DNA from: Amphiscolops sp. MND2022 | Taxonomy: Eukaryota | Length of the DNA stretch: 64,000 nt | Assembly: GCA_964187785.1 (NCBI GenBank) | Contig: OZ076409.1 | Coordinates: forward strand, 6,202,001-6,266,000 | Reading direction: 5' to 3' | Shown: one piece after another, positions 10,891-59,957 of the stretch | Position numbering within the stretch: the first letter of the stretch is position 1 | Layout: each line of letters starts with the position of its first letter | Position numbers and translations under genes: made by a program | The notes under the pieces: generated by a model | Told to the model about the DNA's origin: nothing | Database searches by the model: none | The model's input: only the letters and a program-made list of their open reading frames with translations

Positions 10891-11253
10891 GGGAACTGTT
10901 CAATTCGTCGAACACGTATTAATTTAGCGAGCATGGTATGACGTAATGGAATGAATTGATTTCGGCCAATCAAATTAGAGCATTCAAAATTACGATAACG
11001 TAGTTAGCTATGTTCACATACCCCTAGTGCCCTAAATGCAGGAGCGAAGCGAAGCGGAGCGACGTGCCATATGGCCATGCCTCAATATTGCTACTTGGCG
11101 AAGGGAGCGAAGCGACCGAGCCATACAACAAATATGCTAATCGCCACAAAATATAACCAAAAGAAAATAATCGCTGATATGAAATTCTTTCGACGAATTG
11201 AATAGCTTTTCATTTTTCGACGATTTGAATGTTCGACGAATTGAAGTTGCACC
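10891..11253 (+). mobile_element. MULE-type MITE carrying core 1
   Basis: 9-bp TSD GTACAGATT (10882-10890, 11254-11262); TIRs GG...TTCAATTCGTCGAACA; internal core tatgttcacatacccctagtgccc...gagcgaagcgaccgagccatacaacaaata. Confidence 0.85.
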
Positions 11254-13390
11254 GTACAGATTACTATACCATGGTAAGTTGTTGTATGTTCGTTTCATCC
11301 AAGTGTCGTTTTCAAAAATCAACGCTTTTTTAGATTTACTTACACCAAGCTTCGGAATATCCTTCGCAGGTTGGTCATTTGTTTGTTTTTTTTATCAAAC
11401 AAAACAAACAGTTTTTTATGCAATTAAACATATTTTTTTTTGTTTTTTATTGTTTTTATGAATTTTCCACTTCGAATTGAAAAAAAGGATTTTATTGTTT
11501 CTTAATCTTTAATTACCTTAAATGTAAATTAAAGAAAATTATTTCTTGTTCAATTGGCGATACAAAAAGCAGAGTTTGGCTGCCATTTCGTTATCCAGTT
11601 GGCATCTCAGCTTTGAACGAATTGAACATAAACGAATTTTTGAACATAAACGATATATCACATTCAAAAAATAGGGGGTGAAAACAATCGAACATAAAAA
11701 ACAATAAATTATCTTATTCAAATCTCAAAATGTCAAAAAAAATGTTTTAAAACGTTTTTTATTGATGTTTTAAAACGTTTTTTATTGGCGTGTTTTAAAA
11801 CATTGTTTTAAAACATGCCAACCCTGATCATTTGAGGTGTAAATCAATATCATGATTAAATTATTATATGGTTTTGCAAAGTACTGACTACGTGAGACCT
11901 AGGAATGAAATCTAGATATATAAAGCAGAAATATATGAAGTTCAAAACCCAAAAACCTAATCTCAACTCTAGCCCAAAATTTTGATACCCCTAATCAGCG
12001 ATTTAGCGGCCGTGCAGAATTTTTTCAGCGTCTTTACCAGCGATTCAAATTAGCGGCCGCTAATAGATAGTTTGAATTCAAAAATTACTCCGAGTATACA
12101 CGGAGTTTCAAAGTGAATTTCGAAAAATTACCCTCTCACCCACGCAGAATAAAAAATATAGTACTGAACCCACGCGAGCAAAAAAAACTGAATTGGGTTA
12201 TCATCTAATTTTAAAACATACTTTAAGTCAAACGTTTAATAGCTTGAAGAAAAAGTATTTCAGGGAAAAAGCGATTTTGAAATTAGCGGTTTAGCAATTA
12301 GCGAAATAAATTAGCGATGTCAAAACCCTGCTTTGGCCCCGCTTATTTTTACGCAAATGATAATCACAACTTTATGCAAAACTGAAATTACTCATGACAT
12401 TTTTTTTCTTTTTGGACGACAGGAAATAAAGAAACCGAATAGACGACATATCAAAAATATCAAAAACAAAAATTGACAATTTGGACTTATAAATATTAGG
12501 TTTACCCAAGTTTCCATCGAACACGTACAAACACGCCAAAGTTTCGACAAAAAGATTTCATCTAAGAAAGTATTCAATCATAGAAAGCATCAAGAAAGAT
12601 CATCTACATTTATTTCTACGACTAGATTTAGCACCAGGAGAAGCAAAGTATGAAAATAGAAGGAAATTCCGGAGAATCAGCTTTTCTAATGCTGCGAAAT
12701 GAATTATGTTCAAGCTCCAATCTTTGCCGAGGCTGAACATCGTTTCTTCTGTGATTAGTCAGTCAATTCAAGTACACAAAACTCGACTCGCGACGTATTC
12801 TCGCACTTGCAGAATCGGGAAACCAAGACTCGACAAGATCGGCTTCAAAAGTTTCGCTCTAAGTTATTTGAGTGATGAGCATTTTATTTATAGCATCTAT
12901 CATTTCATACAGAGGAACAATCATTTAATCTAAATTGAAAGAAAGTTGATTTACCCATATGCAGCCAAATATTCAAGCAATGGTCGTCTTGAAGCTGTGA
13001 TTTTAGAGCGATTCATGAAAAGAAAAAAAAACAAAAATCAAATCTTACAAATTACCTACTTTGTTGTCATTTGGTCATTTTTGGACTAATTTTGGCTACG
13101 TTTCTCAGATCCCAGCCATACGATTTTGATGTCATTGCGCACGCAGGAGCACATTTGGGTGTAGAATGACTGTGGTAAAATTTAAACAATCGTATGGAGT
13201 TTTTGAGAAATTTGATATTCTCATTGAAAGGTCGGGAGAAAAAAGGTACGATTGCAGAAGTAGTCGAAAATTTTTTCCGACTCCTAAAAATAATTTTTCA
13301 TTCAAATTTCCAAAAGGGTTGCATGTTATATTCAATTCTTAATGCACATTTGATCATCACTGGATTGTTTGACTCGCGCCATCCGTCCGT

Positions 13391-13579
13391 TCACCCGTTC
13401 AGAGTGAGATCAATCTGATGTTGGTGGTGGTTGATGTTTTTGGAGAACAAGGGCAAGTTCAGACCCTTGGGGGCGTTGGCACGGGCGCATTTGGGATCCG
13501 TAAACTTCCGGGCAAGTTCTCGCTCGTCTTGCAGCATCTCGGGGTCTACTTTGCAGGGCATGCACACCGGAAAAGCTCC
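13391..13579 (-). CDS. EXD1: EXD1-like exon 8 (terminal; GAFPVCMPCK...DLTLNG*)
   Basis: cttttcag|GGA, phase 0; 62 codons to TGA at 13391-13393. A competing acceptor at 13622 would give G-stop. Confidence 0.65.
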   Translation of the reverse strand, partial: GAFPVCMPCKVDPEMLQDERELARKFTDPKCARANAPKGLNLPLFSKNINHHQHQIDLTLNG

Positions 13580-14416
13580 CTGAAAAGACCCAGAAATTTT
13601 AGGACCCCCATGTTTCTTAACCCTGGGGAAGCGGACGCGGGAAAAAGAAACAAGGTCCGAATAGCATTATATCGACATCGTTTGAATTGAATTTTTTTTT
13701 TGGGGGGGGGGGTCTTGGACAACTTACGAACAAATATCAAAAGTTGGTCCTTAGAGGTCCAGTAAAATTTCTACAACAGAAAATGTTCCAGTCACGATAC
13801 ATCATAAATTTTCTGGGATTTCAATTTTCGTACTTTGCGGAAGATGTCAATTTAGCAGCAACTTTTCACTGAAAGCATCCATATTTGAAGAGTACTAGGT
13901 AAACAAAGCGGATTTTTCCTACCGACTGCTTTGGTCTCCCCTACGTTTGGAAACAAAAAAATTTTGGTTCAGTGCAAGGCTTGAAACTCCAGTTGGTTGC
14001 AAAATATGAAAAAATTAAAGACGGACCTTTGGGGGATCTTAAAAAAATTTTAATAAGATTTTTGAACAGTGTCACGGTGCCGAAAAATGTAAAAAGGGGG
14101 CATCCTATGTTTTCGAGGTTCTGTACGCCGATGTTTTTGTTTTGGACGAGGTTCTGGCGTTTCGAGTATGTTTTGGAGGTCCGTAGTTTAAGTTGATGAT
14201 GTTGAACAAATGAACAAAAAAGTGGACCGATCGCGTTGAACTGGCGAAAAAAACTAGCCACTGTATGAGTCGTGCATTTTCTTCGAAAACGCCGACTAAA
14301 AAACACCCACTGTAACAGTCGGGCACTTTTCATAGGATAAGCGCCGACTAAAAACATGTAAAAACTGTCGAGAAACATGTAAAATTCAGATAAAATACGC
14401 GAGCCTCACCACTGAC

Positions 14417-14584: not shown

Positions 14585-15142
14585 CTGGAAAAATAAACCA
14601 AAAGTGCGCAATATTAGGGTGATGCCGAAAACGTCAACATCCAGAACTCTGGAAATACCAGGGAAAACTGCGCAATATAGTAGAGCGACAATTCGTCCCA
14701 TTTTGAGCAAGTTACAATTCGTCCCAATTTTTAAAAGCTGCAATTTGTCCCCAATTCAATCGCCAATTAATACTTCTGTGATTATGAATCCGGAAATATT
14801 ACTTTTAGAGACAGGCCCCAACAATTAACACCCATTGATAGGGCCTCATTTTGGCGCTTAAATGTATTCAGTTGTAAGTGGTTTGTTCAATACTTTGATT
14901 TCAATCTTCCAAGGTTGTTAATTAGCTGATCAATTAAACAATTTGGGACGAAATGTCGCTTTTTACAAATGGGACAAACTCTCTTCAAAATGGGACGAAT
15001 GATCGCTTTTGGGACGAATTGTCGCCCAACCACACAAAATTGGGGTGCTGCCGAAAACCATCTTCAAAAAACTACTCACTTTCTAGGCCTTATTCAAGGT
15101 TTTCTATCAAAAGTTTTTCAAACTGTTTAAACTGTCGATTCG

Positions 15143-16758: not shown

Positions 16759-16793
16759 CTGAAAGACGACAAGGGAAAAGACCTAGTTCTAAC

Positions 16794-24262: not shown

Positions 24263-24365
24263 TAGGCAATTTGCTATTAGGGGAAAATGCTACCAAGGTA
24301 ATTTGCTACTAATTATAACTTTTAGTGCAAGATGGTCGAGTATGGTGCCTAATGAGAAATATTAA

Positions 24366-27472: not shown

Positions 27473-30400
27473 TTGCAATTAATTGATTTCAAAAAAGCTT
27501 GCCAATCAATAATTGTTAATTGGTTTTCTCATCAATTAATAGTAGTGTCCCCCAATGTCACTCCGCCCACACCCGCTGACTTCTGGACGAAAATAACACC
27601 AACACATACTGACTTTATCAAAAAATGCTACTCTGAAATAGTCCAGTGGAAGCCTCAATTTGTCACTCTCAGCAAAAACAAAACTGGACATTGCTTCATC
27701 GAAAGCCTCAGCATTATCTTCGATGAAGTTGCCGAAAAATCGGGAAACTCGAATGTAGCACTTTACTTCGCGATGGTAATGCCCCATCTAGTTCTGGCCC
27801 GTACGAAAGAGAAACGTGAAACATCCATCGGAAAAACCATTCAAAGACGAATGGAAGCATGGCTTAGCTGCGAATTCGAGGCGCTCTTCAACGAAGCAAA
27901 GGGGTGGGCGGAAGTAGGTCGAAGGAACGGGATCGAAAATCAGAGTTAGTTTTCAGGTCGACATACCAAATTTTTGAATGGGATCGAAACAACTCGGATC
28001 GAAATTTTTGTAACGTAGTCAGATATGTTCACATACCCCTAGTGCCCTGAATGCAGGAGCGAAGCGAAGCGACGTGCCATGAGGCCATGCCTCAATGTTG
28101 CTACAGGTGACTATTCAAATCGTAGAATATTCAAACCGTCGAAAAAATCAAAGCTATTCAAAGCGTCGAAAGAATTCCATAGCAGCGATTATTTCCAGGA
28201 TATAATTTGAAGATGTTAGCATATTTGTTGTATGGCTCGGTCGCTTCGCTCCCTTCGCCAAGTAGCAACATTGAGGCATGGCCACATGGCACGTCGCTCC
28301 GCTTCGCTTCGCTCCTGCATTTAGGGCACTAGGGGTATGTGAACATAGCTGACTACGTTATCGTAATTTTGAATGCTCGAATTTGATTGGCCGAAATCAA
28401 TTCATTCCATTACGTCATACCATGCTCGCTACATTAATACATGTTCGACGCTTTGAATATTCTACGATTTGAACTGTCCCCGTTGCTACATGGCGAAGGG
28501 AGCGAAGCGACCGAGCCATACAACAAATACGATAAAATTCGACCACTTTCCATTCGATCCCTGCAATTCGATCAAAAGGTTCGACCTCTGTCCTTTCGAC
28601 CAGAAATATTCGACCTATTTACAGCCACCCGAAGCAAAGGCACTGCAGCTACATATACCAAAAGTGCGGAAAACCCAGAACCCCGATGAAATGAAAAGTT
28701 TTGACATCCAAATGTCATCCGGGAAAATCTCAAGTGCATTGCGGTGTCTGGATGAGTCTCAGAAAGGCAACTCAGAGTGGGAAACAAAACCGTAATGCAA
28801 ATCCTTCGGGAGAAACAACCAAAACCGATGACATCAAAAGACAGCTACGTCACTAACGAAATAGACCACACCCTCGAACACCATCACAGTATTTTCGACA
28901 AAATTAACGCCTCGACAGTCCGAAATACAGCCATGGTAACGCAAGTTAGCCGCCGACCATCCGGCGTCGACGCCAACGACTGGCAGAGGTGGCTTTCACA
29001 TTTCGGTCAAGCATCCACGAACCTCTGCAAGGCTCTTGCGGCATTTGCCCGGAGGCTCGCAACCGAACAAATGCATGATCTAACTCCCTACAACGCATGC
29101 CGTCTCATACTGCTCGACAAAAACCCAGGTGTCAGACCAATCGGAGTGGGCGAAGTCATCAGACGCATAATTGGGAGGAACATTCTTCGATGCATCGGGA
29201 ACGATCTCAAGATCTCTGGCCAGAATAGGCAACTCTGCCTTGGTCAAAAATGTAGCATCGAACGCGCCATTCACAGTCGACGTGAGACGTTCGAGCTGCC
29301 AGAGACAGAAGGGCTCCTCCTGATTGACGCCAAAAACGCGTTCAATAGTCTAAAAAGGGATCTGGCCCTGAAAAATATTCAGAAAACCTGTCCATCCATC
29401 ATAACAGCGCTCCGAAACTCATATGGTACACCTTCAAACCTTTACGTGAATGGGAAAACTCTCTTGTCGCAAGAAGGAACTACTCAAGGCGACCCTTTCG
29501 CTATGTCCATGTATGGCATTGCGCTTCTACCGTTGAAGGACCTCGTGAACGAAGAAGGAGTGCTTCAAAAACGGTATGCTGACGATGGCAATGTAGCCGG
29601 TAGCATCGAATCGCTCCGAAATCTCTTCGAAAAAAAGAAGCTCCACGGTCCCGCATTTGGATACAACATCACTAAATGTCATCTCATCACGAAAGATTCC
29701 TCCCTTGACAACGCAAAAGACCTCTTAAAAGACGAAGAAGTTGAACTAGTGGGAGGACACCGTGTACTGGGGTCCGTAATTGGATCGTCCGAGGCCTGTC
29801 ACGCTTTCCAGTCCTCCAAACTCACTGAGTACACGAACATTGTAAACAAACTTGCGTCACATGCGAAAAAGTCACCACAGAATGTCTATCATGCATTTAC
29901 AAAAGGTGTTCAACACAAACTCACCTTCCTGTCAAGAACAACACCTGACATGGAAAACACACTGCAAAACACCGAATCTCTCTTAACGACGAAACTGGTC
30001 CCTAACATCAGCGACCGTGGTCAGTTATCTGTAGCAGAACGTTCTCTTTTCTCCCTACCGCTCAGCAAAGGTGGGCTGAATATCCTTTCACCCGAAGACA
30101 GAAGAAACGATCTGCAGTGGAGGATGTTACTTCTCATCTAGATGAAGAGGATCTAACCACCGCTGAAGCGAAACAACACTCAACAGTAAACATGATAAAG
30201 AAACAGAAGCAAGAAATTCAAAAAACTAAGCTTGAAGAAGTCAAATGCAACTTGAAGGACGAACAACGACACGCAGTTACACTTGTTTCGGAAAAGGGAG
30301 CATCCAGCTGGCTAGCAGCCCTCCCACTGAAACGCTATGGTTTCACTCTTACGAAGTCTGAATTTCGGGACGGTCTCGCGCTGCGCTACGGTTGGGAGCC

Positions 30401-31369: not shown

Positions 31370-34300
31370 AGGAGAGGAAGAGAAATAAAAGATAAAATAA
31401 TCAATAGTAGCAGTAGGGCTTTTGCGGAGATCCGCAAGGGGCTTCTCACACAGTCACACAATCACGTGGTGAGTTTTCTTTCTAGCTGCCTCCGGTTTTT
31501 CTTTTGCAAGTCAGTGGATTGAGGTATAGCACACGACACGTGATCCTATGCCTCATCCACCAATGCTGTCATCTCATCTTTCTTGTGGTAGCTGCCTGCT
31601 TTATATTGGATGCTTGATGAATCAAGACAAAGCACACGACCCGTGATACTTTGCCTAATTCCACTTGTCCCGGCAATTGTTTCTAGTACAGTCGCACCCA
31701 ATTCTCCATGGCTACGTGGAATCAGGTCTAATGAAATAGATCTAAGAGAGGGGGCAAAACTGAGATCTAAATAAATTGATCTAAATAATCAGGTCTAAAA
31801 ATTGCTTCTAATTTGATCTAATTTGAGGAAAAAAATAAGTCAAATAGGATCTAAAACTAAAAACAGATATAAAGTATAAAACGTGCCTCGGATATGTCCC
31901 CATTTCCTCTAGTGCCCCGCGGCCCATTGGGGCCGCTTATATTACCATCTTGCTAAGCGAGGTCGAACAGGAGCAAAAGACCTAGCGGGAACGTAGATCG
32001 CGAAGCGATCATAGTGGGAGCTGGTCTTTAAGACGGTGAGGGCGAGCGTGCATACATCGCATATGCCCCACATTATATTTTCGCTTTCAGAACACATATT
32101 AGATCATAAAGGGGTTAGACCTAAGTATTATAGATAAAATTAGATCTTAAAGTTAGACCTAACAGTTAGATCAAAGTCCATTAGACCCAAGCAATCAGAT
32201 CAAAGGCGTACACTCCCTCTCCATGAACAGGAAAGATTTTCATCAAAGTCTGCAAATTTTGTCCAAAATATTTGCTTTAACTGGTGTTTCAGACTTTTTC
32301 GGTCGCAATTCAAGATGTCCAGCTTCAAGGTGTTCACTATTCTCGTGGTTTTATAAAAAGCCTGCTGTAATTCGGATTTGCTGGGTCTTTCCGAATTGAA
32401 CTTCAGCTCTCCGCGGACAGAGAAAATCATTCCCGGTAGTCTCAAATTATCAATGTGGTAGTGACTTCGTATCAGTTTCGAAAGCATGAGGACGTCGTTC
32501 AGTTGTCGATACATCGTCAACGGTAAAAGTTTGAGTCTATACAAGGCTTCTTTTTACGAAAAATTCTCCACTAAAACCCATTGAACGATTCTTTTTTGCA
32601 AGTTTTCCAGTTGCCTGGAAACGTACATTGAAAGTACAAAACAACAGCTAGCATAAAGAACTCTTGGGACAATCATGCTTTTGTAGAGATCTAATTTCGA
32701 CAGAATTGGAAGGTTTGAGACATTACTCTTGATCATATAAAAAGTTTTGAATCCTTTCGAACAAGCATTATCGATGTGGCGGTTCCATTTTGAGTCGTTC
32801 TGTAGAAGTAGTCCGAGATCTTTTTCCCAGCATTTGTTTTCAAAAGCGTCGTTTTCTAGGTAGAAAGTCTCGATATCACCCTTGAAAGGTAAATGAGAGC
32901 ACTTGTCCAAATTCAAGGGCAATTTGGTGTCTTGTGTTCATGTGACAACCTCATCCAGCTCCGATTGGTAAATGTTTGCATTCAGTCATATCCTCAAAAG
33001 TTTGGTATCGTCAGCGAATAGGAGAGGGATAATTTTTTCACAACATGAAGGCAAATCATTTATGTATATGAGGAACATTAAAAGTCCAACTAAAGATCCC
33101 TGTGGTACACCACTTTTGACTCTCATTTTCGGGGACAGGCTTTTGTCAAGGCGGACCCTTTGTGACCTTCCGGAGAAGTAACTGTATAGCAGTCTCAGGA
33201 GTCTTTCCTCAATATGAAACTGGTGAATTTTTCGAAGCAAAATTTCGTGATCAACTTGGTCGAAGGCTTTGCTGAAATCGGTTAGCACAATATCAAATGC
33301 AATATCAATCTAGCACAATATCAATCAAATTGTTCTCCAACCAAGCTAAATAGTCTGGAGCATCACCAACAGTTGTAGTACTGTGGATCGGCCGGGCATA
33401 AAACCATATTGAGCTTTATGTAGATAGGGGCTATCGTGAAGGAACAGACGCTTGAACAAAATTAGCTCGAAAATATTCGTTGGTATGCTAAGTAATGAAA
33501 CTGGTTTGTAGTTATCGGCGTTCAGTTAACTCCCTTTCTTGTGAATTGGACTCACAAAAGCTTCTTTCCAAACTGAAGGAAAGGTTGAGGTTTGGAACAC
33601 TTTTTTGAATAACTGGAAAAGCGATTCTGAGATGTGGTCTCTGACTTCGCGGAAGAGGATCTGGGGTAGATTGTCTGGTCCTTTTCTCTTATTCACAGTT
33701 AGTTGGCTACAAATGTTTGATATCTCCAGCCTCGTGAACTCGACGTTTTCAAACTTGGGATGAAACATATCTTGAGAAATTGGTTCGTCGAGAACTTTGA
33801 GGATGTTTTATACGTTGAAGCGAAGAAGTCGGCAAAAAGTCTGACTTTTTCCGCGTCTGAGTGAGCCTCTTCGTTACCGCATTTCAATGTAGACGGTATT
33901 TTTTCTTTTTTCAAAGCTTTGGAATACTCGAAGAGATTCGCTGAAGACCTTGTAGCTGCTAGTTGGCTTTCATAACAATTTTTGTCTTCTTGCACCATTG
34001 CATCGGACTTTAGGGGTAATTCTTGGACTGATGGAAAACTCTCTTGGTGTCTTTTCCGCTTTGTTAGACGTTTCAGTGGGTGCGATGTTCCGCGGGATAT
34101 CCATGGTAAAAGTATTGATCAATTTTTTTTTCATCTAGGCACAGAGTCTCCCAAATTTCCTCCAACCAGATATACCAGTTGTCCAATACATCTACCTTTT
34201 AACAGCAGTAGGAGCCAAATGGCGTTTGCTCCATCATATTTCTGATCTTATCAAAGTTGGCATTGCAAAAGCTATAAAAATAATTTCGAGGATTTTTCCT

Positions 34301-34930: not shown

Positions 34931-37900
34931 GATTCTATCAATTAGTCAGATCTCAAATCATTTTATTCAAGAAAAAATATTACCTTTCGTAAATGTCGCA
35001 AAAAATTTTAGTACATTCCCCTTCTAATGTAGCGGCATATCCGGTGTATGCACGATCGCCTTCACTGTCGCAAAGACCAGCTCCCACTGCGATTGCTTCG
35101 GGATCTCCGTTCCTTTTTAGATCTTTGCTCCTGTTCGGCCTCGAATAGCAAGATGAGAACATAAGCGGCCCCAAGGGGCACAGCTCTAGAGGAAATGAGG
35201 AAACATCCGAAGCACGTTCTATACTGATACAGATTATTGGTCTTATTGTTTTTCTTCTTGATGTTGAAGATTTCTACAAACTGGTATTCTACAATTTGGA
35301 CCTAACTCAAAATATTACCATGGTTCAGTTCGTAGAAAAAAATTGTACAAACTGGACCTAACTTTTCTACAAACTGGATTCTACGAACTGGCTTTCTACG
35401 AACTGGTTGCATGCCTTTTATTGAAAAGTGTTTTTATATGCAGGAAATACGACAATTGGTGTCCAGACCAGGATACATTTCAAGGATAGCATGCCCAAAA
35501 ATATCCCTGCCAGTTCTTGGTACAACTCAGTTAAAGATCTTCAGATCACTTTGTGTAAACAACTACGAGAACTTGTCCACGACAACCCCGGTTTTAGCTT
35601 GCACCCAGAGTCCGTGAACAACTCGAAAGACGTTAAAACTATCTAAAATCTGAAGAAATAAAAATACGAGAAGATTACCGGGCACGATCTGATTGACAAT
35701 ACTATCACACCCCACAGAAATAACAACTATCAACCTCAAAGTGTAACTCAGCTCGCATCTTCTTTTATCACCAACTTATGCGGCATAGTATATTGTCAAG
35801 GTACAGGATCCCCGAATATCTTTGAAGACCTGAGAACATTGGACTGCCCTTTTATTCAAGTCACGACAGATATTTTGAGCGAGTCAGAACAGCGCAGTAA
35901 AGTACTTGTTCAGAAACACAAAGCCTTACATCAATCCAGCGATCTCCGACTCAGATCCCTAGTTGTACTCCTACATTACTACCCAAACTTGAGGAAGATC
36001 TTGAAAACAAGAGGTACCAAGCGAAGAACTCACGAGAAACACAGAGAGGCTAAGCGAAAATGAAAAGACAACTAAAAGTGAGCTTTCAGAGTCTCGGACT
36101 CAGAGCTGCTGTTGTTACCTCTTAAGAGCTTTTCGAAAAAAGGTGAGATTTGGAGTTGTTTACTTTGGAGAGCTTTGGACAGCTTTGGAGCTTTGGAGAT
36201 GACTCAAATCCACATTAGTAATTCGTAGCCATTAAGACGCAAATTGTTTGAATCGTGTTTTTTAAGTCATCACCAAAAACAATGGGTGAACAGGAATTGA
36301 ACCTCAAAGAACCCGAAAAAGCTTTTATGTGGCTCAAGGCGTTCGAGGCGCGAGCGCGTATTGAAAGAAGAGGGATATCGACTCAACACCTGAAACTAGT
36401 GACCCGCCAGCTTTCGCTGCCAAAGCAAAAGATTATCGAGTGACTGATTTCTTCATGAGCCAGTACTGCCTCGAAGCGTTGAAGCAGCTCAGTAGCCTCG
36501 TCGCGCCCAGAAACATTGACGACATGAAATTCATAGACATCGGTAATGACTTCATAAATTACTTTAGGTTGCAAGAAAGACTGGTGGTTGCAGAACTCAC
36601 TGGCTTCCTTCAGATGTCTCAAGTGGGAGAAAAAACAGATACCGACTACCTTGCTAGGCTCTGAGAGGCTGCGCGTACTGCAAGTTTGTCGATCTCAAAA
36701 CTTCTCTGGATACTGAAGCTGAAATGATCCGATTACAATGAATCCAAGCTCAAATTACTTGATTCAATCAGAGCGAACGACATCTTGACTCTTGAAGAAT
36801 TGCTTCAGCTCATTCCATAAATAACCCAGGAGATTCGCTGACAGCTCAGTTCATCAGTCAACTTCAAGTGTAGTTGCATATGCGGAAAAACGTGGCTCCA
36901 AAAATAAAAACTATCTGAGTTGCCGTCAGAAGCCGGAGCAGCGTGGATGATGTGAGTTGAGACTCTACTACTTAATTAGTGAAGTGCTAAGGATGAAAAT
37001 GTCACAATTGTTCGAAGGCAAAGACACTACTCCAGAATGTGCAAAACTAGAGGACAAGAAGACTCGCGAACTGAGGGGAAAACCTATCAAAAAGAAAATG
37101 CATCAGTGTAACATACTTGTGAAGAAACGAACTTCGAAGACCCCTCCTCATCCGAAGAAAACATGTACTATGCAGAACAAATCGCGACTGAAGAGGAACT
37201 CCATCACATTGGAAAGTTAACTGAATTTCATAGCATCAAGTTAAATGATCATGACGTTCGAATGCAGAACGACACTTGTTCTTCAGTGACCATTATCTCA
37301 ACAAAAATTGGCGGACAATTTGCTCTCAAATCTCCATGCTCCTGCCCTGATGGATTATGGCGTACGATTGACAAAATGCAATATTTGGTCATCTAAAGTG
37401 TGAGGTCCAATGGGAAAAGAAAATTCATAGCGTTGACTTAGTAGTGATCGAGTCCGAGAAAAAGGTCGAATTGGATCGGCACAGACGTGACCCGAGTTGA
37501 TCACACTCACAACGCGTCTTTATCTGATGCGAAAGGTTTGCTCGCCATTAAAGGAGTTGAAGCCACTATCAAACTGAAGCCTGACGCAAAATCTGTTTTT
37601 TCGTCGCGCGCGGAATGTTCCACTTGCCATGGAAGCCCATGTCAATATTGAATTGGCGAAACTTCAAGCAAAAAAATCATTGCCCCAGTCGATCGAGGAG
37701 GTGTCATGAATGCCACGACAGTCGCATGGCAATGGAATCATTTCGTTTTTGTGCAGACTTCAAAGTTCATGGGAACGGTAAGATCAAGACTTATGACTAC
37801 TCGCTTCCCGACATGAAACATTATTTCACGAGCTGGAAGGATCAAAGTGTTATGTCAAGATTGACTTAACATCTGCTCGTTACCAAATATTGATAGTTGA

Positions 37901-40900
37901 TGCAGCGCAGGGTTTTTGTGTCATTAACGCAACGTTTGGTCTCTTCAAGTTCCCCAGACTACCTCGAAGAATAAAAAACGCATCCGGAACGTTCCAGTGA
38001 ACAATCGAGAACACTCTCAAAGGATTGGTTTGAACTATCTGTTTTCAGGACAACGTAGTGGTACATGGAGGAAGTTTTGTCTTCTTGCGCCATTGCATCG
38101 GACTATAGGGGTAATTCTTGGACTGATGGAAAAAACTCTTGGTGTCTTTTCCGCTTTGTTAGACGTTTCAGTGTGTGCGAAGTTCCGCGGGATATCCATG
38201 GTAATAGTAATGATCAATTTTTTGTTCATCTAGGCACAGAGTCTCCCAAAATTTCATCCAACCAGATATACCAGTTGTCCAATACAACATCTACATTTGA
38301 CCAGCAGTAGGAGTCAAATGGCGTTTGCTCCATCATATTTCTGATCTTATCAAAGTCGGCATTGCAAAAGCTATAAACCTAATTTCGAGGATTTTTCCTC
38401 ATGTAATCTTTTATTTCAATAACAGCGAAAGTGAAAACGATTGGAGTGTGTGAGGACAGATTACAAACAATCTCGTGATCGCGAAGTGGTTCTAAGACTA
38501 CATCGCAGATGTTTCTGGAAACCAACATAAGATTCAAGTTTTGAAGTCGATTTTTTGTTGCTGATTCAAATCATCGATGTTCTCTAGGAACATTTTTCTC
38601 TATCAGTTTCAGGTTCAAGGGTATTCCAGTTAATTCGATCAAGGTTAAAATCGCAATATGCAATGAACTTTTGGTTGTTTCTTTAAAAATAATATTTGCA
38701 ATTATTGGCATAAATCAACAAACTAAAAACAATGGTCTATCAAACAAAACAAATTCTCTAAACATCTAAAACCAAACACAATTTATACTCACTAGTCCTG
38801 TGAAACGTCCGTGACTGTCTCGATACCCCAAAATTTATTACTGGCGTTCAGGAACAATTGCTGTTCGAGGTGTACGGGGGTCAGGCTTTGGCGGAGGTCA
38901 TTCAAAGCGAAGCCAGCAGAACTAAAAAACAGTTCGAGAAAAAAAACTTCCAGCAGATGAAATTGAGGTAATCAACACAACAAAAACCATCGAATAACAC
39001 GTTTTTCATCCTTATTTCCTTCCTCCCATTGATTCTATGAATTAGTCAGATATCAAATCGTTTTATTCAAGAAAAAATATTACCTTTCGTAAATGTCTCA
39101 AAAAATTTTAGTACATTCTCCTTCTAATGTGGCCGCACATCCTGTGTATGCAAGATCGCCTTCACCGTCGCAAAGACCAGCTCCCACTACGATCGCTTCG
39201 GGATCTCCGTTCCTTTTCAGATCTTTGCTCCTGTTCGACCTCGAATAGCAAGATGGGAACATAAGCGGCCCCAAAGGGCACGGCTCTAGAGGAAACGAGG
39301 AAATATCCGAAGCACGTTTTCTACTGATACAGATTATTAGTATATTGTTTTTCTTCTTGATGTTGATGATTTCTACGAACTGGTATTCTACAATTTGGAC
39401 CTGATTCAAAATCTTACCATGGTTTAGTTCGTAGAAAAAAACTGTACAAACTGGACCTAACTTTTCTACAAACTGGATTCTACGAACTGGCTTTCTACAA
39501 ACTGGTTGCACACCTTATATTGGAAAGTGTTTTAATCTGCAGAAAATACGACAATTGGTGTCCAGATCAGGATACATTTCAAGGTTAGCATGCCCAAAAA
39601 TATCCCTGCCAATTCTTGGTACAACTCAGTTAAAAATCTTCAAATCACTTTGCGTAAACAACTACGAGAACTTGCCTAAACAACTACGAGATTTGTCCAC
39701 GACGACCCCGGTTTTAGCTTGCACCCAGAGTCCTTGAACAACTCGAAGGACGTAAAACTATCTAAAATCTGAAGAAATAAAAATACGAGAAGATTCCTGG
39801 GCACGATCTGATTGACAATACTATCACACCCCACAGAAATAAGAACTATCAACCTCAAAGTGTAACTCAGCTGGTATCTTCTTTGCGATTTATCACCAAC
39901 TTATGCGGCATAGTATATTGTCAAGGTACAGGATCCCCGAATATCTTTGAAGACCTGAGAACATTGGACTGCCCTTTCATTCAAGTCACGACAGATATTT
40001 TCAGCGAGTCAGAACAGCGCAGTGAAGTACTCGTTCAGAAACACAAAGCCTTACATCAATCCAGCGATCTCAAACTCGGATTCCTAGGTGTACTCCTACA
40101 TTACTACCCGAACTTGAGGAAGATCATGAAAACAAGAGGTACCAAGCGAAGAACTCACGAGCAACACAGAGAGGCTAAGCGAAAATGAAAAGACAACTAA
40201 AAGTGAGCTTTTAGAGACTCGGACTCAGAGCTGCTGTTGTTACCTCTTAATAGCTTTTCGAAAAAATGGTGAGCTTTGGAGTTGTCTACTTCGGAGAGCT
40301 TTGGACAACTTTGGAGCTTTGGAGATGACTCAAAACCACATTAGTAATTCCTAGCCATTAAGACGCAAATTGTTTGATCCGTGTTTTTTAAGTCATCACC
40401 AAAAACAATGGTTGAACGGGAATTGAACCTCAAGGAACCCGAACAAGCTTTTATGTGGCTCAAGGCGTTCGAGGCGCGAGCGCGTATTGAAAGAAGAGGG
40501 ATTTCGACTCAACACCTGAAACTAGTGAACCGCCAGCTTTCGCTGCCAAAGCAAAGGATTATCAAGTGACTGATTTCTTTATGAGCCAGTACTGCCTCGA
40601 AGCGTCGAAGAAGCTCAGTAGCCTCGTCGCGCCCAAAAACATTGACGACATGAAATTCATAGACATCCGTAATGATTTCATAAATTACTTTAAGCTGCAA
40701 GAAAGACTGGTGGTTGCAGAACTCACTGGCTTCCTTCAGACGTCTCAAGGGGCAGAAAAAGCAGATACCAACTACCTTGCTAGGCTCTGAGAGGCTGCGC
40801 GTACTGCAAGTCTGTCGATCTCAAAACTTCTCTGGATACTGAAGCTGAAATTATCCGATTACAATGAATCCAAGCTCAAATTACTTGATTCAATCAGAGC

Positions 40901-47537: not shown

Positions 47538-48950
47538 TGAATGTCACTAAGGAAAAACTGTTGCATTTCGTGGGCCTAATATTGAGTCCCGCCGTTTTTT
47601 CCGCTTCGAAAGTTTTTGAAATCATTCAAACGGTTCTGTAATCATCACCTAAATTTCCATCGTGAAGGTAACATAAGATTATTTTTGACTCCAAACTGTC
47701 AATCAGATCTTATACAGAATCCGAAACGAAGGCTGGAGAGTCAGGATCTCTTTGCTGGGACGTTTGACAAAATTTGATTACTGAATCAGAGTAAGAAGAA
47801 AGTCTAGCTGACTCTACAGCGAGTGTGAGTACTTATGAACTTCACGGTGTCTTTCAAAAATTTTCTTTTGCAGGAATTGTCGGCTTATCGAATTGAAAGC
47901 GTTTTCAAATGTCTTTTTCGAAATTACGTTTTTTCTTTGGTTTGGGGGCATTCTATCAAACAACGGAAACCATGTCAGGGCAATTCAGCGGGCTTTTGGT
48001 GCCTATACCTTTTTGTCAACGTATCTTGCTTGACGTGAATTGAAGACATGGTATCCGGTACATCTTGCTGCGGACAACCAGCGGAAAGTTTTGCTCACAG
48101 CGATAGGACGAAACCGTCCATGGGACTTCTTTAGCAAAAGTTATTCTGCAAAACAGAAGTACGGTCGGAATTCGAAAGGAACTTTTCTATCGAGAATCAA
48201 ATTCACAAAACTAGTTAAGGCTCTGTAAAAGTTCAGTCCAATTTGCTCGCTCGAGTTGGCAGTCAAACCTTTCTTAATTTGGGGTGAAATGATATCTAAT
48301 CCTCCGCTAGGCTAGAGCAGTTGGGAAATACAACAGAGACTCCGATGTTGAAAAACAATCGATATCTGTGGAGTCCGGATCAAGCAGTTTTCGCTCTTCG
48401 GTTGTTTCAGCTTGAGGGCCGCGTAGTTGTCGACCACGAAATCTTCAACCTTGTCGTCGCCTACTGCCTTGCTGATTCCGGACTTAACATTATCTTCGTC
48501 TAGTTTAGTGCAAATGGAACGCCGACGTCGTTCTAACCCGCCTTTCCTTTGCGGTTTCCTGTCGCGTTTCGGTTTGTTCTCAAGGACACCTTCCCGAATA
48601 CGCTTGTTGATAATTGCCTGAGTGAAGACTTCTGACGTTTACCTCCTCGAGGTAATTTTCTCAAAAAAAAGCTTAGAGAGGACAGCAATAAGCAACACAA
48701 AGGCATAATTGACGAAGTTTCAGAAATATCATTAATTTTGGGTGCCAAGTTTTCAGCAAGGGGGATTCACGAATTTTTAGGAACTCTTTTCAGATGAACA
48801 ACGCTTGAAACAAAAAAGGTGTCTTGTCTAAATTTGTCATCGTGACACTGAAAGATAGTTTTCACCAAAGAGACCTTCAACATTTAAAGTCAGCAAGGCT
48901 GCGGTTTCCGTTTCTTGATCAATGGGCGCGTTTTATTTGAACCTATCCCT
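46250..48950 (-). mobile_element. Degenerate CRE-clade element, interrupted by a Gypsy fragment at ~47318-47537
   Basis: LKKSHGRFRPIAVSKTFRWL (~48135-48075), RT HDGNLGDD (~47660), RLE QLVWD. Confidence 0.78.
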
Positions 48951-52759: not shown

Positions 52760-55440
52760 GTTGATCACTAAAGAATCCCCAGTTTGCCTTCAGTAGAGGT
52801 TAGTCATTCGTTCTGCAGCTAATCTTTTTCATCCAAAGGTTTACGACAGCGTTGAATCTGAGCAAAGTATTGATATCATATACACTGACTTTAGCAATGC
52901 TTTCGATGAAATCGATCACGGCCTCCTGCTGGAGACAAATTATCTATTTGGAATCAGAGGAAAATTGTTCTCTGTCTTGAAATCATACCTGACAAACCGC
53001 GCTCAAAAAATTCAAGTTCAAAATGAATCCTCAAACTTTTTCGGGATAGCAAGTGGAGTCCCCCAAGGCAGCATACTGGGGTCTTATTGTTCTTAATCGA
53101 CGTTCCATGTTCTGCTGCAAATCTAAACTCTTTGCGATTTGCTGACGATGCTAAATTTATTTAGGACTGATATGGCGACACAATTTATGCAACTGACTTT
53201 GATTCACTCTTTACTTGGACCCAAAAAATTAAATGACATTTTAAGATGGACAAGTGCGCAAATATACCTCTGGGAAATAGCCAGAAATCGTTACGCTTTG
53301 GGAAAGATGTAATTAAATCAGCATCAGTCCAATCAGGCCTTACTTTTTCAAATGACCTCAAGTGGAATCTTCATATAGAAAATGCCTGCCTTAAAGCATT
53401 CCGAGACTTTCATTCGATTAGTAGGATTGCATCTGATGGTTCCGTGAAATTGAACCTCTACAATCAAATGATAGTTCCTGTTTTTGTAACGTCAGGCATC
53501 CGATCCAAAATTTAGATGACTCCAAAAATTCGATGAAGCAGCGAAAAATGCCCGAGTCAAAATGTCCGAACTGGCAGGTCCTTGAAATCATAGAGAAGGA
53601 CAAAAAACACACACAAGACCCCCCAACCGTCCCCAAAGAACTGAAAAACATGTAGAAGCAGACGTTCGAAGATATCCGGGAGCCGCGACAGAGCAATACC
53701 CAGTGATGTGCCATTTCCACCCGAGAAATGCCAAAAAGACCTTTTGCCCCGAAGATGCAGAATGATGCCCGATGCCAGGAACTGATCAAACATGAACTGT
53801 AATTACCGTTCACAGGTTTTTGGATGATGTTTGACCTGCTAGGTCTTCACTTTAGTCCATATTCCCCAAAGACAAAGTATTTCAGCTAGATGCCCCTTTT
53901 GGACCTCAGAAGTATGTAGGTACTCGCAGGAAGCTTGAGGAATGTTTTTACAGGCTTGTGGGACGTGTCCGGATTTTGAGTGCGCCGGCACGTCGGCACG
54001 GAGCTCTCAAATGAGGAGACTCCTAAGACGTTTGGCGAAGTCCCCTAGGAGACCGCTTTTGGACTAAAACTAGTGACTAGGTCGTGTTAAGGGAAACAAG
54101 ACGTTTCGGCGACAAAGTGTCGCCGAAACGTCTCTTAACAGGGTGAGAGGAAAACTGTCGCGGAAACGTCTCTTCATAGGATGTGCGGAAACATACATTT
54201 GAAGATTACAACCTAAATTATCAGGAGACTTGGTTTTGTATACATCATATAGATATCATTTAAAAAGTATAAAACGTGCCTCGGATATGTCCCCATTTCC
54301 TCTAGAGTCCCGCAGCCCCTTGGGGAAGCTAATGTTCTCATCTTGCTAAGCCAGGTCGAAGAGGAGCAAAGACCTAGCAAGAACGGAGATCGCGAAGCGA
54401 TCTTAGTGGGAGCTGGTCTTTGCGATGGTGACCGGGAGCGTGCAAACACAGCATATACCCCATATTATAATATTTTCGCTTCCAGAATGAACGTTTTCAG
54501 CTTTTGAGGACGTTTCTGGGACAAAGACGTTTTGGCGACACTTTTGTCGCCGAAACGTCTGTCACCGAAACGTCCAGAATCCGTGTTAAGACAACGGTCT
54601 CCTGTTCAGGCAATCTAGGCATCGTCCCGTCTTCAAGATTTAGCTGCTACCTTGACATTACATTTTATGTATGCTTCCCCTTGTTATGGCCTCAGCAGGT
54701 AGATAGTTAGTTTGTGTAAAACACGTTTGTAGAAATAAATTTGTAGAAGAATGATAGTAGGGTTGTAGAAAAAAGTTTTACAACCTTACCCACTCATAGT
54801 AAGTTTGTGAAATTCTACAAACCTGCTTTCTACAATATCACTTTATTCCCCTCAGCAAATACGTTAATGGCGAATTGGAAAATTTTCAGAAACGCGTTGT
54901 TAAATGGACTGACTCTGGGGGAAAACGTTACCGAGAAAAACTTCTATTTCAGTTGATATTACCTCTTCCGTTTTATGTTCAACTGAACAACCTGTTATTG
55001 TTATCTAAATTTCATTGAGGTCAATATGAAACCAATTTTTTGAGTGTACCCACGGTCACATCTTTTTCGCGTCGGAATTTGTTTCAGCTTCCAAGGCCAA
55101 AAAAAGAGACCTCAGAAGGAAATTTCTTCTTCCAAAGTTGTCGATTAGCGGTTGTGTTGCAAATCGATCTGCTGGCACATCAAACCTGAAGAAACGAAAC
55201 GGATTTTGACAAAGTTCTGGCAACTATTCAAGATTAGATACGATGAAAGAAATAGATGCACATGGGAAATTGCGTGTGATTGTACCCTTAGCAACTGTCA
55301 CAATAGAACAAACGTAGAACAAAACATACAGGAGTGACACCCCTTGTGCTTCTTGGAGCACTAAAGCCTTACTGCTACAAAATCGAGAAGTGTTTTCACT
55401 CAATCACCTACTACAGACAAGGCTTGTACCACATAAAAAC
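52760..55440 (+). mobile_element. Degenerate CR1/L2-group LINE, interrupted at ~53490-54870 by other insertions
   Basis: YTDFSNAFDEIDH, SGVPQGSILG, FADDAKF; 3' end TWEIACDCT resembles that of the 31.4-34.9 kb element. Confidence 0.72.
54092..54582 (+). mobile_element. MITE carrying core 2 with GACGTTT(C/T)GGCGAC-repeat termini
   Basis: TSD (C)GTGTTAAG (8-9 bp, boundary ambiguous); TIR GGA....GACGTTTCGG(C/T)GAC. Confidence 0.8.
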
Positions 55441-55444
55441 ATAA

Positions 55445-57420
55445 ATTATTACATTAAAAGATCTCGAAAAAATTGTTGAAGAGGAAAAAACGCTGGGACT
55501 CAAAATTAAACCCAGGAAAAGCGAATTTTTTTCCTAGGTGACATCATTGAAAATCGACGATCGACAATTTTAGCATATTTTCAAAAACTTTGCCCCGGGA
55601 TCAAAACACCAAAGAAAGATGAACTTATCATTCTTGGTTCACCGCCCGGCCGGAAATCACAAGAAGACTTATCGGAAAAAAACTGATGAACTGGAAAAAG
55701 TACACGGGGTTGTTGAAAAACTAGATGCGCACTATGGTTTTTTTATGTTGAAAAATTGCTTCAGTCTGCCAAAGTTGTCATACTTCCTGAGAACCAGTAC
55801 ATGTTTTAATCATCCAGTACTCTTGGAAAAATATGACAAAACCGTACGCGACGGGCTTTCCAAAGGGTGAACGTGAACTTCGACAATATTTCGAGGACTC
55901 AGCTGGCTCTGCCGGCTTAGATGGGGGCTTCGGGCAATAAATTCGGTTTACTAAGTTCGAATTTGAACTTGTGCAATAAGTTCGAATGGAATAGTTTCGA
56001 GACAACAAGTTCAAATTTTCATATCATTCATATCCGATGTAAATGTAAACTGGACATCTTTCACACAAGACCCTGAGAACTCCACCGCCTAGGATCTAAA
56101 GGAATCTAAAAACTGAAATGTGGGGCATATCAGGTGTATGCACGCTCGCCCTCACCGTCGCAAACACCAGCTCTCACTACGATCGCTTCGCGATCTCCGT
56201 GCCCGCTAGGACTTTGCTCCTGTTCGACATGGGAACATAAGCGGCCCCAAGGGGCCGCGGGGACTAGATGAAATGGAGAAATATCAGAGGCACGTTTTAT
56301 ACTTAGTTCAAAATTCGAACACAGTGATTCGAACTTGTTCCGGTTTTTGGAAAATTCGAACTTAGTCCATTCGAAATTAAAATTCAAACTTATGCGTTCG
56401 AACTTGTTACCGTGCCCCTAGATGGGTGGTCTTGGGGTTTCATCCGCATCATTATTAGCACTTCCTGCGTTTTTGGCCTCTGCTTTTGGTGCGAATGACT
56501 TTCTCACGAAGAGTTTCTCGGAAGCCTTCGAAGATGTTCCGTTTACAAACGCGTTTGAGAAATGGTTGAGTTCGACGAAAAACTTCTCGAAGGAACCCAG
56601 ACAAATTGGACACAACTTGTTCACGTCAAAAACACCCAAGATTCGATTTCTGGAGTGGATGATTTGATTTCTGGAGTGATTTTCTGGACATACGTTTGAA
56701 TGTTTTTACAACTCATCAAGGCAAATTCGGGACTCAATGGCTCAACGTCGTTCTTGCAAGAACCCAGGCCTGAAACTTGATGATCCGCAGCTTCGGATTT
56801 CAATTGGTTTGCGTCTCGGGGCCAACATCTGTGTTGCGCATACGTGCCACTGTGGTAAAAGTGTTGAAAGGGACAGTTTACACGGTCTTTCTTGTACCCA
56901 GATTGCTTGTCGCTTCTCACATCATGCTACTCTCAATTCTCTCATAAGCAGACGTTAGGATCTCTCGACTTGTCTTCAATGTTCGAACCTCGTGGACTGT
57001 ACCGAACTGATGGCAAACGCCCAGACGGAGTTACCATGATTCCTTGGGAAATGGGTAAACAGCTGGTGTGGGGTGTCACGGTTGTGGATGCTCTTGCACC
57101 CAATAGTCTGAATCAAGGCTCTTTATGCAACCCGGGAAACACCGCCATCGAGGCTGAAGCGCGTAAAACTGAGAAGTACCGCGAATTAATAGACAATGGA
57201 TACATTTTCCAACCGGTTGCCTTGGAAGTACAGGGTTCTTTAGGCGAGAGCAGTGAAATTTTTGATCACGCGTCTTTGTAAAATGCTCTGTCGTTCGCAC
57301 GACGATCAACGAGTTGGCAGTTTTTTGAAGCAATGGATTCTTCAGATCTGCAATGCGGCCTGTGTTCTAGGAACAGAGCGACAGAGATGCGTTTGAAGAA
57401 TTTCATTACAAATAGCTAAT
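55445..57420 (+). mobile_element. CRE-clade element 3' half with a core-2 MITE inserted at ~55924-56418
   Basis: LKNCFSLPKL.YFLRTS, LPA.|MGGLGV split by the MITE (duplicated TAGATG), CHCGK...HGLSC, DGKRPDGVTMIPWEMGKQLVW.VTVVD. Confidence 0.88.
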
Positions 57421-57518
57421 TTTTTAAAAACCTGTATGTCATTGCAGCTTTAAATGAAAATTCTACCGGTCGACTGCGATAGTGGCTGGTATGAGTAGTT
57501 TGTTAGTTTGTTGTTTTG

Positions 57519-57876
57519 CGGGGCAGGGACGTTTCGTCACCAGCTTTTTGGGCGACAAAAATTTCAGCCCATTTCGGTGACAAAAATGTCGAACAAATGT
57601 CGCGTAGACTAAATGGCCAAATATGTTCACATACCTCTAGTGCCCTAAATGCAGGAGCGAAGCGAAGCGGAGCGACGTGCCTTATGGCCTTGCCTCAATG
57701 TTGCTACTTCGCCAAGGGAGCGAAGCGACCAAGCCATACAACAAATATTCTAACCTCTTCAAAAATATCAGTTAATTGACCAATTTGATCAACCTATTTG
57801 GTCGACACTTTTGTCGCCCATGTGTCCGACGCCATATTGTCGCCCAAATGGCTGGTGACGAAATGTCCCTGACCCG
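57519..57876 (+). mobile_element. MITE carrying core 1 with CGGG(G/T)CAGGGAC(G/A)TTTCGTCACCAGC TIRs
   Basis: 26-bp imperfect TIR; core 1 at ~57622-57748; TSD unclear. Confidence 0.78.
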
Positions 57877-58198
57877 TTTCTGCTACTGATCTACTGGGAT
57901 AGTGGCTGGTATGGGGTTCCCTACTTTCGTTGCAGACCACGGGTGTGTGTCTTCCCTCAAAATGATGATACACATGGCACTTGATTTATGACGAAGATCC
58001 ATGATATCTGATAGAGAAAAAATGTATAGCAATGCAGCTTTTTAAAAAATTTCTCTCAACCGGTTGACTGGAATAGTGGCTGGTATGAGTAGTTTGTTGG
58101 TTCGACGCTAGCGATGATTCGTTTGAGGTCCTCAAGAACCGTCCGATAGTCATCCGAAAGATTTCCGTCGTCGAAGTACCAAACATTATATTTTGAAA

Positions 58199-59090
58199 TT
58201 ATTGGTTAGCGAGGTCTTGAATAGTGTCGGAGAAGAGAGCTGAGCCTTCGGGGTCCCCTTGCTGACAGCCCTCTTGCGATTGAATAACTTTCTCTCCGAA
58301 GAAAAGATGAGAGGATTCGCTATATGCAGAGTGCGTATAATTGTAAATCTGGCGTCGTTTTCGAAAAACGGTGTCTAAAATTTTGTCACGTTTCAGCGAG
58401 TTAAAAGCATTTTTGAATTCCATTTTCAGAATAACGTTTTCAGGATTCTGCTCGTTCTCAATGAGGTTTCGAAAAACATGTGCTGCGATTTCAGCTCCAC
58501 GACTTGTTCCGCAGCCGAACTGCGTACCATGGAAATCAATTCGTCTCTGGTCAGTCGCGAAAGAGCTTACACATTTCGAGCAAAGTCGACGCAGGGTATT
58601 TCCAACAGCAATTGGTCGAATTCCGCAGTCTTTTTTCCGAAGACCGATAAGTTTAGCACCAAAGAAAAAAGGTCTCAAACCTACAGGGACTTTGCCTTTC
58701 AAGACAATATTCAGTACGCTTGTTAGCTTCTGGAGAAACGCGTTGCCTACGGATCCGTTGCTCTTCGCGATAAGGTCTTTGTACAACTGGGGCACAAGTA
58801 GGCTTGGTCCTTTCGAAGACCCAGAAGGGAAGGAGTTGATTGCCTTCGCTACGATGGGTTCAAACGAAATTAGGCTATCTTCGACATTTTGTTGGGCATG
58901 ATTTGGGGCTCGAGGGGGATGTTTCGACTGAAGTTTTTCGTAAGTGTTGTTGTCCAAGGGAGCTACTGAGTCGTCAGACGCTGCTAGTCTTATTCCCGCT
59001 CGGACGTTCCCCTCATCGAGCTTGGCCCATTTTTGCTCGAGTTTAGAGTCCTTTCATCTCGAGAATGGACAAAATACTTCCTGAGCAAGA
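58199..59090 (-). mobile_element. CRE-clade RT N-terminal fragment
   Basis: GIRPIAVGNTLRRL, QFGCG...GAE..AH, KNAFNS, GCQQGDP. Confidence 0.85.
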
Positions 59091-59106
59091 GTCGAAGTTT
59101 GCAGAG

Positions 59107-59957
59107 GGCTACGTGGAATCAGGTCTAAAGAAATAGATCTAGGAGAGGGGGCAAAACTGAGATCTAATTAATTGATCTAAATAATCAGGTCTAAAAATCT
59201 CTTCTAATATGATCTAATTTGAGAGAAAAATATGTCAATAAGGATCTAAAACTAAAAAGTGATATGAAGTATAAAACGTGCCTCGGATATGTCCCCATTT
59301 CCTCTAGTGCCCCGCGGCCCCTTGGGTGGGCGGAAGTAGGTCGAAGGAACGGGATCGGAAATCAGAGTTAGTCCTCAGGTCGACATTCCAAATTTTTGAA
59401 TAGGATCGAAACAACTCGAATCGAAATTTTCATAACGTAGTCAGATAGGTTCACATACCCATAGTGCCCTGAATGCAGGAGCGAAGCGAAGCGGAGCGAC
59501 GTGCCATATGGCCATGCCTCAATGTTGCTACTTGGCGAAGGGAGCGAAGCGACCGAGCCATACAACAAATACGATAAAATTCGACCGCATTCCATTCGAT
59601 CCCTGCAATTCGATCAAAAGGTTCAACCTCTGTCCTTTCGACCAGAAAAATTCGACCTATTTACAGCCACCCGCTGCGTATATTCCCATCGTGCTAAGCG
59701 AGGTCGAACAGGAGCAAAGACGTAGCGAGAACGGAGATCGCGAAGCGATCGTAATGGGAGCTGGTCTTTCCGACGGTGAGGGCGAGCATGCATTCATCGC
59801 ACATGCCCCACATTATATTTTCGCTTTCAGAACACATATTAGATCATAAAGGGGTTAGATCATAAGTATTTTAGATAAAATTAGATCTGAAAGTTAGACC
59901 TAACAGTTAGATCTAATTCCTTTAGACCCAAGCAATTAGATCAAAAGCGTACACTCC
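59107..59957 (+). mobile_element. MULE-type core-2 MITE with a core-1 MITE (59324-59672) nested inside its core
   Basis: 9-bp TSD TTTGCAGAG (59098-59106, 59958-59966); the inner element is the GGGTGG...CCACCC family, without a clear TSD. Confidence 0.87.

Follow-up and report, generated by a model that had tools for sequence, protein, structure and literature searches.

In the animal Amphiscolops sp. MND2022, many MITE (miniature inverted-repeat transposable element) families with different termini share one of two related non-coding interiors, core 1 (126 bp) and core 2 (182 bp). Both are found in the stretch analysed here (the window; 64,000 nucleotides, GenBank assembly GCA_964187785.1, contig OZ076409.1, positions 6,202,001 to 6,266,000), which belongs to a 1.07-Gb genome with 13 large chromosomes. 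We show that the cores are shared between families, are absent from the autonomous parents, are captured by one MITE from another, are retained intact, have been relayed across ages, lie in piles of several families and are neutral in their individual copies. Our proposal, to which we give a probability of about 0.5, is that the core is a selected, transposase-independent and portable cis module that is relayed by capture inside insertion hot spots.

Carriers, parents and the cores they share

The carriers are ordinary Mutator MITEs. They are short, non-coding, high in copy number and homogeneous in length (families of 344-356, 350, 555 and 692 bp; range 340-700 bp), and their arms are arrays of short family-specific motifs that form long terminal inverted repeats (TIRs) with subterminal tandem repeats. 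A random genome sample (60 evenly spaced 10-kb stretches; 599,600 bases) was scanned de novo for GG...CC elements with perfect target-site duplications (TSDs) of 8-9 bp; it yielded 17 candidates, against one in a shuffled control, and a core is present in 10 of the 17 (one doubtful, in a tandem array). Counting terminus pairs only where TIR and TSD are present, at least nine carry core 1 and at least eight core 2 (the window element at 55925 included). Clustering of flanks returned 23 arm-pair types among 72 full copies of core 1 and 35 among 81 of core 2, numbers inflated by nested insertions and chimeras. Such chimeric elements, with the arms of two families joined via the core, were seen at L052:1523 and 2170, L033:39 and L035:794. 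The termini do not derive from one ancestral TIR to which all could be aligned.

In the same random sample, matches of at least 60 bp number 10 for core 1 and 9 for core 2, about 17/Mb for each. Extrapolation gives approximately 16,000-18,000 copies per core, and about 30,000 or more in all, with a wide error because the cores are clustered and held by only 10 of the 60 stretches. Of the sampled sequence, 0.38% is core and 1.4% belongs to complete elements of core-bearing families.

The genome holds at least 150 matches to the domain of Mutator-like elements (MULEs). Twenty of these with long frames were fetched, and compact elements of about 2 kb were found among them. In 7 of the 16 autonomous MULEs tested, the ends match the arms of core-bearing MITEs (Table 1); no partner for the window families B, C, D and Q was found among these 16. 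PF10551 (the MULE domain) is present in all four transposases scanned and FLYWCH in three of them, and with these cognate elements the Mutator origin that a sequence-only reading of the window had claimed is borne out. After masking of a nested MITE in L127, none of 12 autonomous elements contains a core. The apparent cases, L127 and L129, proved to be cognate MITEs with TSDs of their own; these core-bearing copies (L127:3890-4325 and L129:6135-6617) lie inside, or about 25 bp beside, their own autonomous parent.

The transposases of the seven matching MULEs are merely 22-42% identical in amino-acid sequence and are scattered over the tree, on which the core label needs at least four changes; ownership of the core by a single transposase clade was accordingly rejected. 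In contrast, family-consensus cores stay close to the overall consensus, with differences at 0-2 of 126 sites for core 1 (three families) and at 1-7 of about 182 sites for core 2 (seven families), and copies picked independently of the core diverge on average by 3.1% (core 1) and 5.4% (core 2). With core identity of at least 96% against such distant transposases, the suggested exchange among families that use different transposases held up: the core moved between lineages long after they had split.

How it moved can be read from the flanks. Shared sequence extends beyond the core by 0 to about 117 bp per side, nested among families and shuffled between left and right, and neither fixed ends nor a TSD surround the core; the differing shared interval and the missing TSD had been described from the window. 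The MITE in L129 starts with its parent's end, followed by about 35 bp, the core and about 62 bp in common with family C. An 8-bp microhomology marks the point in L079 where the parent arm gives way to family-C sequence. These junctions show capture of the core from other MITEs, which are its immediate donors. Junctions with MITE-derived flank fit the filling of a gap in a deletion derivative from a neighbouring MITE and do not fit the insertion of a free element into a parent-derived derivative. For the P-MITEs of Anopheles, earlier work suggested gap repair that copies an ectopic template (PMC1562414). An ultimate source of the core in a host gene was not found in the sequence sampled, which is part of the genome only.

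Cores 1 and 2 had been thought to share their left end. They are indeed homologous, but are alignable over their whole length rather than at the left end alone (z 6.2 versus 300 shuffles). A recurrent core break led to a third relative, core 3, of about 165 bp, with 397 candidates at first look. Twenty fetched copies and the query diverge by 15.8% from their consensus, and their TSDs are no longer recognisable; the flanks are several kinds of foldback-type arms, one of which is that of family C. Judged from these copies, core 3 is older than cores 1 and 2. Aligned to core 1 it gives z 13.8, and the match to core 2 is weak (z 2.6); in the left block only about 3 of 59 sites differ between cores 3 and 1 (read by eye).

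All three cores carry a GAA-loop hairpin on the same strand with differing stems: the stem of core 3 has 7 bp, core 2 reads GATCGC-GAA-GCGATC and core 1 has GGGAGCGAAGCGACC. Relative to core 3, two changes in the core 1 stem turn two Watson-Crick pairs into adjacent G.A pairs, which would be stable in DNA. C(GNA)G and C(TT)G hairpins are distributed between plus and minus strands as 4:0 in core 1 and 2:0 in core 2 (consensus) and 21:1 in 20 copies of core 3, counts that rest on few ancestral motifs. As DNA, mini-hairpins of the GCGNAGC type have exceptional stability; they are found where phage replication is primed and in N4 promoters, and their RNA counterparts are far weaker (PMC13037366). 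The description of both cores as hairpin-rich applies to core 2 (plus strand, DNA z -2.0, RNA z -2.35) and fails for core 1 (DNA z +2.6). A 22-nt pattern from the left block has no exact match in viral or prokaryotic genome contigs. The core-1 19-mer GGAGCGAAGCGACCGAGCC is found exactly in 101 prokaryotic metagenome stretches (L361-L461), by eye often within palindromic intergenic repeats and with no wider homology seen; this recurrence is probably convergence on a stable DNA hairpin. A further abundant repeat, in L079, L084 and L092, has a palindrome that contains GCGAAGC and is unrelated to the cores.

Retention was assessed on 413 core hits. Nested insertions account for 43 of their internal breaks, and another 86 breaks are unpaired. 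These unpaired breaks are single events, and no partial-core family has been amplified among these hits, with the limits that captures in a chain are not independent and that rare partial families could be missed. Breaks that seemed to recur turned out to be tandem duplicates, the edge of an alignment, two internal deletions that differ from each other, or core 3. The captured pieces are just modestly longer than the core, a caveat to the lack of amplified partial cores. In copies selected by their arm, private substitutions amount to 2.78% in the core versus 2.35% in the unselected arm (10 copies) and to 1.96% versus 1.56% (16 copies). Such equal rates rule out conservation of the copies by the host, so that any selection acts on transposition. 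The earlier notion of a selected cis module thus receives indirect support from the absence of amplified partial-core families, and cannot refer to selection at the level of the host; a transposition enhancer, a host-factor site, a promoter and an ssDNA signal are candidate functions.

Insertion hot spots and competing explanations

Reconstructed empty sites were inspected for copies that had been picked by their arm or that came from a core-less family. Insertion had occurred inside a core-bearing MITE for 10 of 30 copies of a core-less 260-bp family (query included), 5 of 17 of family B and 4 of 22 of family G; pooled, these are 19 of 69 insertions, versus 1.4% expected. Both controls gave none (0/56), neither at 29 loci (25 independent) of a core-less 600-bp MULE family nor at 27 of an unclassified 311-bp element with 8-bp TSDs. 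The 600-bp family may predate cores 1 and 2, and the neighbourhood test, which is independent of the order of events, gave 75 of 109 loci (six families) with another core within 1 kb, compared with 5 of 51 control loci and 5% of random points. In the surroundings of the 260-bp family (20 copies), the share of sequence covered by cores falls from about 10% within 1 kb to 2.6-3.6% at 1-3 kb, about 2% at 3-5 kb and 0.57% at 15-25 kb. The neighbours in these hot spots belong mostly to other families, which rules out local hopping as the cause of the piles. Family B supplies 4 of 31 neighbours around its own copies versus 57 of 122 around other families (p 4e-4), and family G 3 of 44 versus 28 of 109 (p 0.008; loci L232-L290, L142-L170 and L003-L060). 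This deficit could reflect target immunity or the loss of close same-family pairs.

The mechanism that we envisage starts from the observation that several MULE families insert into, and within about 1 kb of, core-bearing MITEs of other families. A deletion derivative of a new MULE would then be filled from the neighbouring MITE, probably via template switching in gap repair, to give the new ends, core and variable donor flank seen at the junctions. Only derivatives with an intact core would reach high copy number, as the lack of amplified partial cores suggests. The core may open its surroundings, both as donor and as target, to transposase; a host factor that recognises either its sequence or its one-strand DNA mini-hairpins would mediate this. 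The age series shows that the module has been relayed over successive invasions, first as the old core 3 and later as cores 1 and 2. Its persistence is likely due to a gain in copying success for its carrier, whatever the transposase. We tentatively entertain, as a possible though not a favoured extension, that the core is a selfish non-coding replicator parasitising Mutator, which would build its landing pads by means of a host factor or of one-strand DNA mini-hairpins, draw in invading MULEs, be repackaged between their ends and outlive its carrier families.

Several observations weigh against a selected module. Core-less MULE MITEs also amplify, as 7 of the 17 scan candidates demonstrate, and the core is not obligatory for transposition. 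Within hot spots, the core receives roughly its local share of insertions (8 of 69, or 12%, for about 9% of cover), insertion points are scattered across core and arms, and their orientation is unbiased (66:78); the core is therefore not a sequence-specific target. Later insertions struck 10 of 51 core-bearing MITEs versus 2 of 28 age-matched controls, a difference that is not significant (p 0.2). By nearest-neighbour calculation core 1 folds worse than its shuffles, offering only short mini-hairpin motifs. The middle parts of cores 1 and 2 hold fewer shared variants, which is no more than suggestive of lineage-level constraint in the core. Capture from young copies during a single burst may account in part for the near-identity of the consensus cores. 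Finally, a CRE-like family of long interspersed nuclear elements (LINEs) covers 4-9% of hot loci, 0.8% of the core-1 search set, 0.6% of the random sample and 0% of the controls; within hot spots its co-enrichment is 7-15-fold, roughly one hot locus in three contains it, and the flanks of the carriers are rich in retroelements and contain retroelement open reading frames. A shared outside cue may thus create the piles.

Such a cue is central to an account by neutral hitch-hiking, in which retroelement bodies or chromatin gather the MULE families, the nearest template for gap repair happens to be a MITE, and a functionless core is passed along. The LINE enrichment over random sequence and the retroelement reading frames speak for it, as do the share-level insertion into the core, the neutral mutation of copies, the existence of core-less families and the proposal that P-MITEs of Anopheles had their interiors filled ectopically (PMC1562414). 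We nevertheless regard it as rather unlikely. It leaves unexplained that well over 17 captures have their breakpoints outside the core and that none of the partial cores sampled is amplified, that the left block of core 1 differs so little from that of the much older core 3, and that GAA-loop stems are kept on one strand despite sequence change; moreover, the LINE is absent from 14 of 21 core-containing loci of the core-less family.

It is improbable that the core represents, at present or in its origin, a small mobile element in its own right, non-autonomous rolling-circle (Helitron-like) or similar to a short interspersed nuclear element (SINE), which inserts into MULE derivatives. A CTAG near one core end, the GNA mini-hairpins, the prokaryotic occurrences of GGAGCGAAGCGACCGAGCC, many by eye in palindromic repeats, and the divergence of several core-2 lineages 2-7 bp from the core edges could be taken in its favour. 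Yet the CTAG lies about 20-25 bp inside a conserved block, TSD and fixed ends are absent, the nested and shuffled shared flanks vary in length, and the DNA beside the core comes from other MITEs and not from the autonomous parent. Solo cores with fixed ends or TSDs of their own, by which such an element would be known, were not recognised among the 153 full cores clustered. A SINE-like origin finds no tRNA gene (ARAGORN, 0 across the window), no Rfam match (window 59000-60000, zero at E<=5) and no tail or TSD. Least probable of all is a regulatory element of the host, such as a promoter or enhancer, that selection on the animal maintains and MITEs merely spread. The G+C content of the cores (54-59% in a 39% genome) and the focal hot spots of about 1 kb, which fit open chromatin, agree with this idea, against which stand private substitutions as frequent in the core as in the unselected arm, the failure to find a host-gene source and the location of carriers largely in retroelement DNA.

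Core-bearing elements of the window and their surroundings

All eleven core-bearing segments listed by the sequence-only reading are present, as determined by self-BLAST and reading (Table 1), and the motif GAGCGAAGCGA occurs 10 times in the window versus 0.02 expected. That reading had not noted the hot spots shared between families, core 3, the MULE MITEs that lack a core or the coral precedent, the CMITEs. Those at about 35030 and 39135, counted as separate carriers, represent a single insertion duplicated within a tandem repeat of about 4.1 kb (33977-42209, 94%). Several carriers had been given 9-bp TSDs; the TSDs measure 8 or 9 bp and are perfect at 10891, 27902, 28106, 54092 and 59107, degenerate at 31710, 55925 and 57520, and absent at 59324. 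As for the TIR types regarded as unrelated, the tips of the elements at 10891 and 28106 do differ, but the two are 91% alike over about 110 bp on each side of the core. The family-B element at 27902-28630 sits in a non-LTR retroelement region.

Table 1. Core-bearing elements of the window, with matching autonomous MULEs and core 3 copies from elsewhere in the genome
Feature	Position or locus	Strand	Remarks
Family C2 MULE MITE	10891..11253	+	core 1 ~11009-11133; 9-bp TSD perfect
Family B MULE MITE	27902..28630	+	core 1 ~28023-28105 and 28482-28529, split by nested 28106-28481; 9-bp TSD perfect
Family C MULE MITE	28106..28481	-	nested in family-B core 1; own core 1 ~28223-28347; 9-bp TSD perfect
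Family A MULE MITE	31710..32216	+	core 2 31890-32072; 8-bp TSD, one mismatch; ends match autonomous MULE in L130
Core 2 with further arm type	35026..35413 (approx.)	-	core 2 35026-35208; part of 4.1-kb tandem duplication
Second copy of 35026 element	39126..39510 (outer coordinate approx.)	-	in 4.1-kb tandem duplication
Family I MULE MITE	54092..54582	+	core 2 ~54283-54462; 8-bp TSD perfect; ends resemble autonomous MULE in L134
Family Q MULE-type MITE	55925..56414 (approx.)	-	core 2 ~56119-56285; degenerate 8-bp TSD; inside CRE-like LINE copy
Family D MULE MITE	57520..57875	+	core 1 ~57621-57746; degenerate TSD; inside 3' untranslated region of CRE-like LINE family
Family A MULE MITE	59107..59957	+	core 2 split at CTTG hairpin by nested family-B element; 9-bp TSD perfect
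Family B MULE MITE	59324..59672	+	nested in core 2 of 59107 element; own core 1 59445-59570; TSD absent
Autonomous MULEs, ends matching core-1 MITE arms	L124, L127, L129, L140
Autonomous MULEs, ends matching core-2 MITE arms	L130, L134, L135
Core 3 copies	L462-L481, L347:5755-5915, L138, L203, L225

Copies of the LINE, which we take to be CRE-like and of the restriction-like endonuclease type, lie at about 55470-58016 of the window and in L345, L338 and L104, and are often struck by MULEs. At the end of its 3' untranslated region are motifs resembling C/D boxes, with snoRNA hits in Rfam below threshold, and an A-rich tail; a repeat first read from these hits as a C/D-box SINE proved to be this region. 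The window further contains a tandem segmental duplication at 43810-47543 (spacing about 2 kb, 88%), a satellite array at 16946-19350 with units of 132-134 bp at about 96% identity, and core-free inverted-repeat elements at approximately 115-771, 7714-8182, 14684-15025 and 10471-10765, among which a copy of the 311-bp control family lies near 10532.

Relation to known systems

How MITEs originate, and why some out-replicate their parents, is an open question, and the conserved interior of the coral CMITEs posed a puzzle that was left unresolved. Cognate transposases, capture junctions, a core age series, core-less controls and hot spots make the role of an interior directly testable here. If the core does boost transposition or attract insertions regardless of the transposase, DNA transposons would have in it a cis enhancer or landing pad that is portable, and selection would have a unit smaller than the transposon to act on.

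Muta1-type (type 2 foldback) MULEs of Aedes aegypti, with a FLYWCH/DDE transposase of about 500 amino acids and many non-autonomous derivatives, resemble the carriers in their 8-9-bp TSDs and in long TIRs made of short subterminal repeats (PMC5225508). Their derivatives have heterogeneous interiors that include pieces of host genes, whereas here many families converge on one interior. The P-MITEs of Anopheles gambiae, and Pack-MULEs, like the carriers, combine parental ends with an interior from an ectopic template, and an origin of P-MITEs via gap repair or two adjacent copies has been proposed (PMC1562414). Their interiors are unrelated to the parents, and the accessible text describes no shared source; in our case, the template is time and again the same module in another MITE. 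In rice, MITE multimers arise by the nesting of MITEs in MITEs, with Ditto a preferred target of many families (Jiang and Wessler 2001, as summarised in PMC5172404), and the piles seen here are alike in both respects. Self-insertion is common in rice, whereas same-family neighbours are under-represented here and targeting is coupled to capture.

Within the accessible literature, which took in few subscription journals, the CMITEs are the only shared conserved MITE interior that we found; none turned up for Mutator, nor did any connection with capture or with hot spots. Variable TIRs around a conserved interior are already known from these piggyBac elements of the coral Acropora, whose families have different TIRs and an internal region more conserved than the TIRs (PMC2872659). 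By description, the basis of this comparison, CMITEs and our cores are alike in a cross-family interior that is more conserved than the TIRs and missing from the cognate autonomous element, and for both a role in transposition is suspected and the origin unknown. The CMITEs are piggyBac/TTAA elements of about 100 bp, with six families, approximately 1600 copies and one autonomous partner found (PMC2872659). The carriers described here are, by contrast, Mutator elements of 340-700 bp with variable 8-9-bp TSDs, at least 17 terminus pairs and about 30,000 or more cores, and are distinguished by seven partners that diverge from one another, by three homologous cores that fall into two ages, by capture that can be traced from MITE to MITE and by hot spots shared between families.

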